Shown: positions 14,801 through 40,214 of the stretch, piece after piece
How the letters are laid out: the number at the start of each line of letters is the position of its first letter
How positions within the stretch are numbered: position 1 is the stretch's first letter
From: Styela clava
Taxonomy: Eukaryota
Assembly (NCBI RefSeq): GCF_964204865.1
Contig: NC_135251.1
Span: 20,956,001-21,020,000 of the forward strand
Direction: 5' to 3'
Length of the DNA stretch: 64,000 bases
The notes under the pieces: generated by a model
Databases searched by the model: none
Told to the model about the DNA's origin: nothing
What the model saw: the letters and a program-made list of their open reading frames with translations, nothing else
Made by a program: the position numbers and the translations under genes

Positions 14801-17800
14801 ATGTATATGTTCATAGACGCACTTGTGTAATAATCAAAATATTATTAGAACAATCACCTTTTTATGATATTTCAGGTTGTTCATAGATCCCCAGCAGGAG
14901 AAGCCTTACATTTTTATGACAAACGAAACGATTATGCTTATTTCACAAGTACAGAAGTTGAAGGCACAGAAGATGGTTTGCCAAGAATACGCCATTTATG
15001 GAAAGTTAAAGGTTGACAATAAGAAGTGCTTTAAATTACTTAAAGCAACATTTAATTTTAATTATCGTTTTTAATCCAATTATACTGCCAAACACACAAT
15101 TTCGATAGATTCGAAAACAAAACATCGCGTCACATTGATTGTATAACAAAACATGTCTTCATCAATGACGTTTTTTTTAAAACATTCTTGTTTGACAGCT
15201 CATGGAGATAGAACTAGGGAGTGTGTCTCATGCGATCTGAATACAATATATGCTGATAGATGTAATTGGGTTGACCCAACTTTCAGTCCCGAAGGATCCT
15301 ACGTTGTTATAAACTGTGGCGGAACCGGAAACGGTAAGAACTTGGAAGAAATCGGAATAATAAATGCTGTGTTACCACTATTATATACGATGTTCAATGT
15401 AAATTAATCCGCATTTATTCCGGAATTTAAGAAATAAAAAGCCTACTTGAATTGCATTCATTTACATTAAAACTAAAGTCAATTATTTCTTTGAGACATT
15501 AAAAGCAAAAAAGAACCCAACAGGTGTTTAAGATGCTTGGAGAACTATCATGTAACGTGTTTGAATTATTTTCTATAGGAGTACCCGTCTCAACTCTTCA
15601 TCATATATCTGATTCTGGCGAAGTTAGTTTACAGAGAGTAGTTGAAAATAACACTCAGATCATCGAAAACCTTGAAGGTATATATGAAACCATTTGGATG
15701 AGAATACCCGTTGGTCTTGAAGAAACGGAAATCGCACTAATTCGATAAATCTGCTTAATTTATAGAAAATAGTGTTTTGGGTAAAACAATTGTACTGTCG
15801 ATGTCATAAACGCTAAAATTCTTGATAGTTTGCACGTGTTGGCCAGCATTCTAGTCGCTATGACCATACCGACAAACTTTTCTCTTTAAGCTTACAAATT
15901 TCGAACAAGAGAATATGGTGAGCTTAGTCTTCCTCAAGTTGATGATGAAGTCTTTTATTACACTCTACACAAACCACCAAACTTCGATTCAAGCAAGAAA
16001 TATCCATTGCTGGTTCATGTTTATTCAGGTAAAACGTTATAAGTTGTAAGTTCTTATAGTCGTCATAATTATATATATATATTATTTTATACGAAATGAA
16101 CTCATGGAACATTCTACTGTTATGCTGTTGTTGTGGAATTTTACTTTTCTTTGTGAAAGAATCGCTTTTCTCTTTAACTACTGGACCTGGGATTCGTTTT
16201 TCACTTCGAAGTTTTGTTTGATGAAATCATCAAAATAAAACTGCCTATCGTGTGGCGGTGCGCGATCGAGTGCTCTGGTGCTCAGCTCAAACGGGGTTTA
16301 TAATAAGATACCGGTAGACTTGATACTACAGTTGTGACTTATTTGGTATTTCGATTTGCGTTGAGACTGGACACATCGTCATTGTCACATAACCTGGCAA
16401 AGTTAGGACAGTCCGGATACCTTTACTGGTAAATTACGGAACTTGTGAGCTACGGTACTTGTTCCGCAGGGTATGATTTTGGGGGAATTGTGGGTGATAA
16501 TTTCGTTTCGACTTTCGTTTCCATATATTTGAGCATTGCTTTATTGTTAATTATTTTGATTTATACAAAATAGCATCGGATATCAATTTTCAGGCCCTGG
16601 CTACCAAGACACAATAGATTCCTTCATTTCGACATGGCCGATCGGTTACATACCAAGTAGCGATCTTGATGTGGTTGTGGTCACTTTTGATGGAAGAGGT
16701 ACGGGATTCAGAGGGAAACAAATCAGAAGCATGGTGAGGCGAAATTCATAAATTTTATTACTTTTGTGTAAGATGCTTTTATTGACTTTGTCTATGCAGG
16801 TCTACAATCGTATAGGAGAATATGAACCGCTGGATCAAATCGAAGCAACTCGACAAATTACAGAAAAATATAACTTTATAGATTCCAGCAAGATTGCAAT
16901 GTGGGGAAGATCTTACGGAGGGTAAGAACATTCTGGGGGTTAACTTTACATTCAAAGTTTTGTGTTAAATTTCTAATTTATGTTTTTTAGATATATAACT
17001 GCAAGAACAATGTCAGAAGACGAAAATCTCCTATTTAAATGTGGATTATCATCTGCTCCTGTAACTGACTGGATGACATATCATAGCATTTACATTGAAC
17101 GATATATGGGTTTGCCAAAGGAAAATGAAGTATGTATGCATACATGAGTTAAGTGTATCAAAATAGGATTTCTTTTCTAAACGCAATCCATTTACGCTGC
17201 TATTTAGTAACAAAGAACCACTAAGTACATGCGAATCAGTAACGCTTTCATCTTGATGAGGTAGTGATTACCTAAACGTAAATGAGACAAAATTATTAAT
17301 ATTGACATAAGCATGATAACACAATTGAATTGAGTTTATAGTGATGATCTAATCACCTCCACCTTAAAGCTTAAATTATTACTTAAAACGAATACACAAT
17401 GGACATCAATTTACTCACAAACTCATGTGCAAGTAAAAAAGTATCCAAGTACTTAGAAAACAATTTTGTAGACCAATAAAAAGCTACTAGGTTGAAAGTT
17501 GAAAAATAGGTAAAAGAAATTATTTTAAAAATATTTTATACTGTCAAACAGTGGGGGTAATATTTCATTTGTGCTGTATTTTTGAAGCGTATATGTTTCA
17601 ATTTTATAACAGAACTAATGTACCGTTTATTCGTTTGATTATTTTCAGATTGGATACAATAAATCGACAGTGTTTCAGAAACTTCACAACATCGGAAAAC
17701 ATTATTTTGTCTTGATTCATGGGACAGCCGACGACAACGTTCACTTTTTGGTATAAGACTAGTCCTGCTCACTTTTATATAAGCGTATATCTGGCCCGTT

Positions 17801-38100: not shown

Positions 38101-40214
38101 TTGTTTTTTTACACGTTTTGAAGAAATCGCTTTTCTCTTTGATTACTGGACCAATTGCTTTGAAATTTTCAGTGATTAAAGATGAAATTTTTTCTCCAGA
38201 AGGCTATTACTTTTATTTTTTGCGTCATCAAAATTATGTGGCGCTACGTGTCCATATATTTGAGCATAGCTTTTTTGTTCTAGTAATGTTGTTGTATATT
38301 CGTAGAGTTTCTAGTTTCATTGTTACATCTACTTTTGAATCGAAATTAATATGAAATTTTTTATTTTATTTTCTAAGCCTATAACTTTCGAACACGTGAA
38401 TATGGTGAACTCAGTCTTCCGCAAGTCGATGATGAAGTTTTTTATTATACTTTACACAAACCGGAGAATTTTGATCCAAGCAAGAAATATCCATTGCTGG
38501 TGCAAGTGTATTCTGGTAAGTATAGATTCAAAATAACCATCAAATTTAGGCCTTCATCAAATGTTCACCAAACCCTAACTTTTTCAACAGGCCCTGGTTA
38601 CCAAGACACAATAGATTCATTTGTGTCTACTTGGGCGACTGGGTATATACCAAGTAGTGATCTTGATATTGTGGTGATGACGTTTGATGGCAGAGGTACT
38701 GGTTTCAGAGGAGAAAAGATTCGAAATATGGTGATTAAATATTTTTGTTACTTTTTAGCCAAACACATAATAATTATCTTCAAAAATATGTTCAAGTCTT
38801 TTTTTAATATTTTTATATAAATTAGAGGAAACTCGTTGGAGAACTGTTATCTTTAATTTGATATTTTTATAAAGTTGTTACTTAGATATGATTTTCAAAA
38901 AAGCAACTGGAATGTATAATACAATGTACTGCCAGTCCAATATGATACTTAATCCACTCTTATCTCCAATTTTAAGGGCTAACAGTAGTTTTCCTTTATT
39001 CCATCTATGCCTGGAAATAAATAAATTTATGCAACTTTAATAGGTTTATCATCGTTTGGGAGAATTCGAACCATTGGACCAGATCGAAGCAACCAGACAA
39101 ATATCTGAAAAGTATGATTTTGTTGATAAAAACAGAATTGCGATATGGGGAAGATCCTATGGAGGGTAAAGTATCAATAATTCCCTGACTATAACATGAT
39201 TTTTTATTTATTTTGCTGCTGAAACCAAATTTCGTACTATTTTACCGTATAGATACATCACTGCAAGGACGATGTCTGAAGATCAAAATCTTTTGTTCAA
39301 ATGTGGATTATCAGTTGCTCCTGTGACTGACTGGATGACATATCATAACTTTTACACTGAACGTTACATGGGATTGCCGAGTGAAAATGAGGTAAAACGA
39401 ATAATAAACTGAAAACTATTGAATGAAATATCCTCATCACTATTTTTAATTTATGGCCTGCATATTAAATGGTATTTTGATGGTGTTTATTAAGGTCGGA
39501 TACAACAAATCCACAGTGTTTCAAAAGCTTCACAACATTGGAAAGCATTATTTTGTTCTAGTCCACGGTACTAGTGACGAAAATGTACATTTTTTGGTAT
39601 GTCTTCTGTCTTAAGTTCCTCTTGCACGCAGTATTTTTATACTCTCCTTTTAAGTTACACTAATATGCACGATATGAAATTGTATCTACGCCGATACCTT
39701 TTAAAGAAAAGCAGTTGTCGGCTGCTCACAACAAAACAACAACACATCAGACCTTCAGCAGCCTGTAGAATATGATTTGAATCTTCACGCTGTCTGATAA
39801 AAAAGCGGTTGGTTTAGTGTAGCAATATGAAAAGCGCCGGTAGTGTCACAACAAAGCGGTAATTGTTGAGAGTAAATGAATAGACAATTTAGGTAGTTTC
39901 TTGCACTTTCTTCTTAAGACAATATCTAATTGAGATCAGTAGATGACACAAAAAAATTTTAGTCCTTCGAAGTTTGACTTGACGCCACTGGCGCTTTGCA
40001 ATGATTTTACATAATATCAGGTACATTTAATCATTACCTATTTACTATTTTGCAGCACGCTGCCAGGTTGACGAAAGCTATGATAGAAGAAGATCTTGAC
40101 TTTTTAGCATATTTTGCTGGTGATGAAACTCACAGGTTCAATCGAGGAAAGAACGCATACGGCCATCATTACAAATTACTGACACATCACTTGAAAGTCT
40201 GCTTTGGACTTTGA
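32158..40214 (+). CDS. DPP4-like: DPP4/FAP-family (S9B) peptidase-like paralog D, 19 exons, about 800 aa; intron 5 donor reads TT instead of GT (possible null allele or sequence error)
   Basis: Exons: 32158-32281, 32450-32554, 33346-33440, 33960-34037, 34110-34165, 34472-34583, 34737-34882, 35180-35351, 35502-35646, 35904-36091, 36427-36571, 37080-37217, 37348-37446, 38378-38515, 38591-38730, 39044-39165, 39253-39391, 39495-39596, 40056-40214. Motifs [24 protein letters not shown]. The only lesion seen is ttgagt at 34166, where the paralogs have gtgagt. Confidence 0.88.
32612..32914 (-). mobile_element. Non-autonomous Penelope-like (PLE)/retrozyme-type insertion with an inverted 5' duplication
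   Basis: Flanked by a 12-bp direct repeat tatagttttgaa (32600-32611 and 32915-32926). Contains a 189-nt foldback (32726-32914) and a hammerhead core. Related copies at about 1212-1442 and 60746-60934. Confidence 0.72.
32772..32811 (-). ncRNA. Minimal type I hammerhead ribozyme motif
   Basis: The minus strand reads UGU-CUGAAGA-A-GUCUGACC-UU-GGUCAGAC-GAAA-CG-UU-ACA: CUGANGA and GAAA core, 8-bp stem II, palindromic ACGU stem III, 3-bp stem I. The mirror copy on plus (32829-32868) has GAAA changed to GGAA. Confidence 0.7.
32954..33273. mobile_element. hAT-type MITE
   Basis: TIRs cagtgcttcccaat / attgggaaccagtg; perfect 8-bp TSD ttttagat. Older copy at about 30983-31280. Confidence 0.88.
37479..37999. 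mobile_element. hAT-type MITE
   Basis: TIRs caggggtggccaa / ttggccacccctg; perfect 8-bp TSD gcatatat. Confidence 0.92.

Follow-up and report, generated by a model that had tools for sequence, protein, structure and literature searches.

We analyzed a 64,000-nucleotide stretch of the genome of the ascidian Styela clava (C2:20956001-21020000, on RefSeq contig NC_135251.1 of assembly GCF_964204865.1; hereafter the window, with positions counted from its first letter), which has a GC content of 34% and many introns. Our analysis identified three genes similar to dipeptidyl peptidase 4 (DPP4), here called B, C and D, together with the propeller exons of a fourth gene, A. The proteins encoded by B, C and D have kept the catalytic triad and the proline pocket of DPP4 and have lost residues of the clamp with which DPP4 holds the amino terminus of its substrate; they also carry an arginine in place of the tryptophan before the catalytic serine (Arg-type domains, GRSYGG, as opposed to Trp-type domains, GWSYGG). 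The gene models are as follows:

45..6639, reverse strand: gene A, propeller exons (RefSeq protein P0122)
8813..18389, forward strand: gene B, DPP4-like, Arg-type; 19 GT-AG exons, a single open frame, 790 amino acids
21999..29549, forward strand: gene C, DPP4-like, Arg-type; 19 GT-AG exons, 795 amino acids, exactly RefSeq protein P0185
32158..40214, forward strand: gene D, DPP4-like, Arg-type; all 19 exons in the genome, exon-5 donor TT
34166..34167, forward strand: splice donor of D exon 5, TT instead of GT

Gene A runs past the window start into a Trp-type catalytic domain (GWSYGG, with His at DPP4 position 663). S. clava RefSeq proteins annotated as "dipeptidyl peptidase 4-like" match an exon of D at 100%, and both the DPPIV_N propeller and the Peptidase_S9 domain score above the Pfam cut-off in P0185, P0184 and P0121. 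The proteins begin with a hydrophobic segment as strong as that of rodent DPP4, either an anchor or a signal. Both RefSeq models of D (P0001 and P0184) skip exons 5 and 6 in frame, and the newer one, P0001, additionally skips the exon of the catalytic Asp, although the genome has that exon intact. The predicted model of D without exons 5 and 6 still folds, with a predicted local distance difference test (pLDDT) score of 88.6 that is low at the junction; the skipping (window 34110-34583) takes out five propeller strands, including the hairpin of Arg125.

A sequence-only reading of this DNA had reported three active-site swaps shared by B, C and D, namely GRSYGG for the nucleophile motif GWSYGG, WMTYH for WEYYD (His at DPP4 Asp663), and Arg directly after the catalytic His. 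We confirmed all three, with AGA codons at 16908, 28505 and 39152, CAT at 17082, 28690 and 39344, and THRF at 18303 (B), PHRF at 29463 (C) and THRF at 40128 (D). The triad and pocket are likewise intact in the three genes, as had been claimed (Y547, S630, Y631, V656, W659, Y662, Y666, D708, N710, V711 and H740 kept). DPP4 numbering was transferred by motif from the rodent sequence P0134, and human chains were present in some of the alignments. The corresponding features, all on the forward strand, are:

16908..16913, forward strand: B, codons of Arg629 and catalytic Ser630
28505..28510, forward strand: C, codons of Arg629 and catalytic Ser630
39152..39157, forward strand: D, codons of Arg629 and catalytic Ser630
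17082..17084, forward strand: B, His at DPP4 Asp663
28690..28692, forward strand: C, His at DPP4 Asp663
39344..39346, forward strand: D, His at DPP4 Asp663
17721..17744, forward strand: B, catalytic Asp708 loop with Asn710 and Val711
29096..29119, forward strand: C, catalytic Asp708 loop with Asn710 and Val711
39567..39590, forward strand: D, catalytic Asp708 loop, in the exon skipped by P0001 and intact in the genome
18303..18323, forward strand: B, His740, Arg741 and Phe742
29463..29483, forward strand: C, His740, Arg741 and Phe742
40128..40148, forward strand: D, His740, Arg741 and Phe742

Each swap was followed across an alignment of 181 rows, comprising the B and D models, 147 of the 150 best matches of a profile search that covered 1.84 billion cluster representatives, and 32 chosen rows; one of the other three matches was already in the alignment. 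Seventeen rows form one clade and 164 lie outside it; the rows are related and the counts are descriptive. Ser630 and His740 are kept in all 17 clade members, which upholds the earlier remark that these proteins, unlike DPP6 and DPP10, retain the catalytic serine. The three swaps do not behave as one shared and distinctive set, and their distributions differ sharply. Position 663 is His in 16 of the 17 clade members and Ser in the other, versus Asp in 146/164 and His in 1/164 outside. His663 is also found in all GWSYGG members of the clade (Ciona intestinalis, C. savignyi, Clavelina and four further rows), and D663H was rejected as specific to B, C and D because it is clade-wide. His740-Arg was rejected as a signature because position 741 is variable (Arg in 3/17 in the clade; Arg in 6/164, Gly in 32/164 and Ser in 75/164 outside). 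Position 629 is Arg in 5/17 clade members and in 0/164 rows outside (Trp in 147, Lys in 4), and Arg629 is fixed in all four Styela Arg-type domains, three in B, C and D and one in the gene A2 described below, and in the protein P0304. On these counts, Trp629Arg is the sole distinctive swap of the three. Arg629 travels with Phe742: when sites were sought that all four Styela Arg-type domains share and that 11 Trp-type rows lack, these two alone proved to be present in P0304 as well. The motif GWSYGGY, given as the S9B signature (PMC13181208), is present in A, isoform X1 of A2, Ciona and Clavelina, and reads GRSYGGY in B, C, D and isoform X2 of A2. P0304 itself is a distant Arg629/Phe742 catalytic fragment with an intact triad, Ser at 663 and no propeller, placed in the clade by the tree.

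A larger change, overlooked by the sequence-only reading, is the clade-wide loss of Arg125 and Glu205. Counted over the 15 full-length clade members, with two fragments set aside, Arg125 is present in 0/15 (Val or Ala instead) versus 141/164 outside, and Glu205 in 0/15 versus 159/164. PMC5807507 describes the double Glu of DPP IV as holding the substrate N-terminus and as essential for exopeptidase activity in a bacterial DPP IV, and Arg125 of DPP4 as binding the P1' carboxylate or carbonyl. According to PMC7984154, Asp663 of DPP4 is buried, taken as protonated, and a second-shell hydrogen-bond donor to Glu206, and the DPP4 mutant D663A gains weak endopeptidase activity. By sequence, the clamp of Glu-Glu, Arg125 and Asp663 has been lost as a unit in the clade. 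In the window genes, the relevant segments are:

10474..10494, forward strand: B, blade-2 hairpin, Val for Arg125
23495..23515, forward strand: C, blade-2 hairpin, Val for Arg125, with a conserved Arg four residues on
34113..34133, forward strand: D, blade-2 hairpin, encoded by exon 5, whose donor is broken
11860..11883, forward strand: B, site where the Glu-Glu helix is deleted
24321..24347, forward strand: C, Leu at Glu205, Glu206 kept
34806..34829, forward strand: D, shortened helix, Glu at neither 205 nor 206

Exon 7 of B is 15 nucleotides shorter than exon 7 of C and lacks the Glu205-Glu206 helix, a deletion also present in the older-assembly protein P0128. Because a contig from the sequencing run X1 spans C-type exon 7 ungapped, with 11 differences, the deletion (window 11797-11933) may be polymorphic, and a B allele without it may exist. 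Glu-Glu and Asp663 are likewise missing, with Ser intact, from two unrelated S9B proteins, P0195 (from the mite Halotydeus destructor) and P0338, which have His and Gln, respectively, at 663 and may be cases of convergent clamp loss.

These results alter the electrostatic argument of the sequence-only reading. The actual loss of acid on the non-prime side, which it overlooked, is that of Glu205, and in B and D also of Glu206; D663H is clade-wide and no plain loss of charge, Asp663 being buried and protonated. Of its two arginines near the prime side, position 629 does line that side, whereas the site of Arg741 is variable, with Ser in the Arg-type domain of A2. A reversed polarity of the site is unsupported, because the prime side of DPP4 is already basic through Arg125, which the clade has lost, and because Asp663 carries no free charge.

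Both types of catalytic domain are carried by a single gene, A2, which lies upstream of the window:

C2:20937306-20950358, reverse strand: gene A2 (genome G000; L011, L012)
from about C2:20950358, reverse strand: A2 propeller exons, ahead of both cassettes
about C2:20942388-20940652, reverse strand: A2 Trp-type cassette, after the propeller exons
C2:20939789-20937306, reverse strand: A2 Arg-type cassette, after the Trp-type cassette

Both cassettes begin with an AG acceptor in phase with the common exon-14 donor, and they translate exactly to the ends of RefSeq isoforms X1 (XP_039260167) and X2 (XP_039260168), which are found in both annotation versions. A2 is annotated as splicing either cassette onto one propeller; the joint into the Arg-type cassette is based on the RefSeq isoforms and the matching phases and was not seen in reads. 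The two catalytic domains are 57% identical; the Arg-type domain has GRSYGG and His663, but Ser after His740, and the last part of its cassette holds an intron that is not in the Trp-type cassette. B, C and D, which are 71-74% identical to the Arg-type domain of A2, likely descended from an A2-like gene and retained only the Arg cassette.

A catalytic-domain tree of 36 rows (IQ-TREE) supports the tunicate clade at 100/99, and the propeller supports it at 100/100. Tunicate DPP4s with the Glu-Glu motif group with the clade as its sister (98/99, catalytic domain). The Styela Arg-type domains fall together (99/97) and join P0304 weakly on a long branch (89/75), and the Trp-type domains of Styela, Ciona, Clavelina and further rows are separate from them (98/93). 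In the best tree the Arg/Trp split precedes the split of Styela and Ciona, and a Styela-only origin is not rejected (p-AU 0.094); the propeller tree does not order A/A2, B/C/D and the other species. B, C and D on this placement belong to a tunicate-specific offshoot of the DPP4/FAP lineage, S9B by descent with a variant motif. We found no Arg-type isoform in Ciona or Clavelina among 18 further protein cluster members of these species. Elsewhere in the Styela genome, on C6, C16 (two) and C19, at least four additional genes resemble DPP4 and carry the Glu-Glu motif, and because these are kept the clade would have been free to diverge. One of them, P0194 (G000:C19:8554263-8562157), has an altered pocket (Val656Leu, Trp659Arg and Tyr666His), a pattern also seen in P0270 and P0296. 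In the two genes on C16 (G000:C16:4606001-4626000 and 4686001-4706000; L146-L149), the nucleophile motif is interrupted by an intron after Gly-Trp, which is not so in the window genes.

The ratio of nonsynonymous to synonymous substitution rates (Nei-Gojobori) is 0.14 for the catalytic cassettes of B and C, and the D protein shares 82-85% identity with B or C, the synonymous sites being saturated or nearly so; these genes are under purifying selection. Transcript evidence comes from X1, a run presumed to be RNA and one of three possible RNA runs. One X1 contig joins exons 15, 17 and 19 of B, with 122 and 103 letters between them that fit exons 16 and 18. A second contig links exon 10 to exon 12 across 136 letters, which is how long exon 11 is. 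B-type contigs carry the letters of B at 39 of the 40 listed differences from C, and gene B is spliced in this run. A low-depth X1 contig matches the last exon of D with one difference. Runs X6 and X9 have almost no exon cover and were given no weight on expression either way.

The AlphaFold2 model of C has a mean pLDDT of 93.6 and aligns with human DPP4 (5kby) over 712 residues (Z 45.4; root-mean-square deviation (rmsd) 1.8 A), with a Foldseek template-modeling score of 0.87; all 50 structure matches listed for it are chains of the DPP IV family. The hairpin tip is formed in this model by Val134-His135-Tyr136. Linagliptin, one of the class-2 gliptins, extends into S1' and S2' (PMC5807507), and in DPP4 its quinazoline is stacked by Trp629 (PMC7984154). 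Because of this contact, Arg629 would start from the prime-side wall, the direction of its side chain not being read from the model.

In line with the sequence-only reading, the products of B, C and D are probably active enzymes that are specific for proline and differ from ordinary DPP4. The explanation that we favor, at slightly under an even chance, is that they are active post-proline endo- or oligopeptidases that, in the Arg-type form, favor acidic groups at prime-side positions. The enzymes are likely extracellular and would act in this way instead of as aminodipeptidases: once the clamp is gone, the substrate would no longer need a free N-terminal amine two residues ahead of the cleavage site, and because the residues that grip the N-terminus are lost and the triad and proline pocket are kept, cleavage after proline elsewhere in a peptide is likely. 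Where Glu206 is kept, His663 likely stands in for protonated Asp663 as its partner. Arg629 would replace the Trp wall of S1'/S2' and likely shift preference to acidic residues or a nearby carboxylate.

Several observations weigh against this explanation. Glu206 is kept in 13 of the 15 full-length members (all except B and D), a conserved acidic stretch follows it in most members, and, with a single exception among the full-length rows listed, a conserved Arg or Lys lies four residues past position 125. In a bacterial DPP IV, the role of Arg125 is supplied from another loop (PMC5807507), and with this precedent a rewired amine clamp is possible. The proteins would then be N-terminal exopeptidases that release X-Pro or longer units, His663 could give the hydrogen bond of protonated Asp663 (PMC7984154), and Arg629 would only tune the prime side. 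We consider this unlikely, as neither B (in the window allele) nor D has a Glu at either 205 or 206, the models of D lack the hairpin, and the salt-bridged pair of Arg125 and Glu205 is lost together in 15/15. FAP, according to mutagenesis, needs Arg123, Glu203 and Glu204 for its endopeptidase activity too, and because FAP both keeps and needs these residues, clamp loss could simply weaken catalysis. Asp554 of B, C and D, at a position that is presumably close to 629 in space, might neutralise Arg629; this position is Tyr in the Arg-type domain of A2, Trp in P0304 and not conserved outside the clade (Lys in 38/164). Finally, the only basic residue found at 629 outside the clade is Lys, in four proteins, every one of which lacks Ser630.

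This last point would also suit weak or inactive pseudo-enzymes that drift to a binding role like that of DPP6 and DPP10. Phe742 is enriched in outside proteins without Trp629 (3/17 vs 2/143, with rows not independent), and D has a broken donor and models that lose five propeller strands. Such a drift seems improbable to us, since Ser630, Asp708, His740, Tyr547, Tyr662, Asn710 and Val711 are kept across saturated synonymous divergence and in P0304, and since DPP6/10-like rows lose Ser630 and Tyr547, unlike the Arg-type domains.

The position of Arg629, directly ahead of the nucleophile on the prime side, and its fixation in the four Styela Arg-type domains and P0304 are also consistent with a C-terminal post-proline exopeptidase (a prolyl carboxypeptidase or a peptidyl-dipeptidase) in which this residue binds the terminal carboxylate. 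The sequence-only reading had raised this role, for which the lost Glu-Glu clamp is the proper basis. The residue preceding the catalytic Ser contributes to carboxylate binding in the serine carboxypeptidase Y, and in B and D the entire amine clamp is gone. In family S28, the aminodipeptidase DPP7 and prolyl carboxypeptidase (PRCP) have the same fold and proline pocket, and what distinguishes them is a hairpin that binds the amine (PMC2893137). S9C carboxypeptidases exist (cited in PMC13181208). However, Arg741 is variable and missing in 2/5 Arg-type proteins, Arg125, the carboxylate binder of DPP4 itself, is lost, and no groove-blocking prime-side insertion is evident in the C model, given its rmsd to DPP4. 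In addition, the His-His/Arg motif after the PRCP catalytic His also occurs in DPP7 and hence is not diagnostic (PMC2893137). A carboxypeptidase activity is, in our judgment, doubtful. Rather unlikely, too, is the broader proposal of a tunicate S9B class that attacks peptides from the end opposite to DPP4, in which A2 would switch specificity by splicing and B, C and D would be fixed post-proline carboxy-exopeptidases that arose from the Arg cassette.

Loss of the amine clamp would also be compatible with transpeptidases, peptide ligases or cyclases, and other S9 enzymes cyclise peptides, namely plant PCY1 and fungal POPB. Both of these are S9A and cytosolic, whereas B, C and D are derived from S9B and have an N-terminal hydrophobic anchor or signal, and we recognised no gene for a precursor peptide in the window. 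The ligase-like role suggested by the sequence-only reading found nothing in its support, and we regard it as very improbable.

Among known systems, DPP4 and FAP form the nearest vertebrate clade. The proteins resemble DPP4 in fold, triad, Tyr547, proline S1 pocket and N-terminal hydrophobic segment, at about 34% identity; they differ in that the clade lacks Arg125, Glu205 and Asp663, in that B and D also lack Glu206, and in that Arg replaces Trp629 in the Arg-type domains. With FAP they share an intact triad combined with a non-Asp residue at 663, the change that gives FAP its endopeptidase activity, but that residue is Ala in FAP and His in the clade, FAP keeps Arg123, Glu203, Glu204 and GWSYGG, and the tunicate clade is a separate duplication. 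Several DPP6/DPP10 rows have a basic residue before the nucleophile position and a non-Asp residue at 663, and some have Phe742, but these proteins lack Ser630, keep Glu-Glu and usually Arg125, and form their own clade (100/100). PRCP versus DPP7, together with the S9C carboxypeptidases, offers a precedent for proline-specific alpha/beta hydrolases that switch peptide end without an amine anchor; they belong to other families with other cap domains, and residue equivalence to Arg629 is by analogy only. Judged by the residues that define DPP4, FAP and DPP6/10, the clade is none of these and instead an S9B-derived variant.

As for the spread of GRSYGG, which the sequence-only reading had raised, Arg629 is distinctive in the alignment (5/17 in the clade, 0/164 outside), and the motif is not unique among hydrolases: uniqueness was rejected, as prokaryotic S9C-like peptidases and further alpha/beta hydrolases also contain WGRSYGG. 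In two scans with narrow patterns, one of genomes (97 loci, 86 of them translated; limited to CGN codons for Arg) and one of metagenomes (34 loci), we found no match that was both Arg-bearing and DPP IV-like; the DPP IV-like metagenome matches had Ser at that site. Scan matches were judged against seven DPP IV references, to which the best Arg-bearing ones were at most 31% identical over long alignments. The word-based homolog searches were incomplete, one of them missing two of its own input rows. No publication on these genes was found in the literature on ascidian dipeptidyl peptidases or tunicate DPP4/FAP evolution, subscription papers and supplements lying outside the scope.

DPP4, a major drug target, is an aminodipeptidase by virtue of this clamp, which has here been removed by evolution, with triad and proline pocket preserved, in a clade maintained across ascidian orders. 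The two natural catalytic domains of A2 on the same propeller provide a ready pair for probing Trp629 and the clamp, and the clade possibly represents a new post-proline activity in the sister group of vertebrates.

Behind the hydrophobic segment, the products of genes A, A2 and D as well as P0124 and P0127 have a dibasic site (KR or KK), which C does not have; it would fit convertase shedding or propeptide removal. Short intronic repeats of very high copy number, judged by extreme read depth, lie at window 27453-28069, 32389-33005 and 37942-38558, and in an intron of C a unit of about 90 bases is, by eye, repeated three times in tandem (25488-25760). A dispersed repeat in an intron of B (13900-14231) has an inverted copy at 51564-51914. 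Broken frames on the reverse strand at 55583-56913 look by eye like remnants of retrotransposon gag/protease, with no Pfam match. The downstream neighbor of the cluster, at 59445-61265 on the forward strand, consists of exons of an ornithine/arginine decarboxylase-like gene (PF02784).

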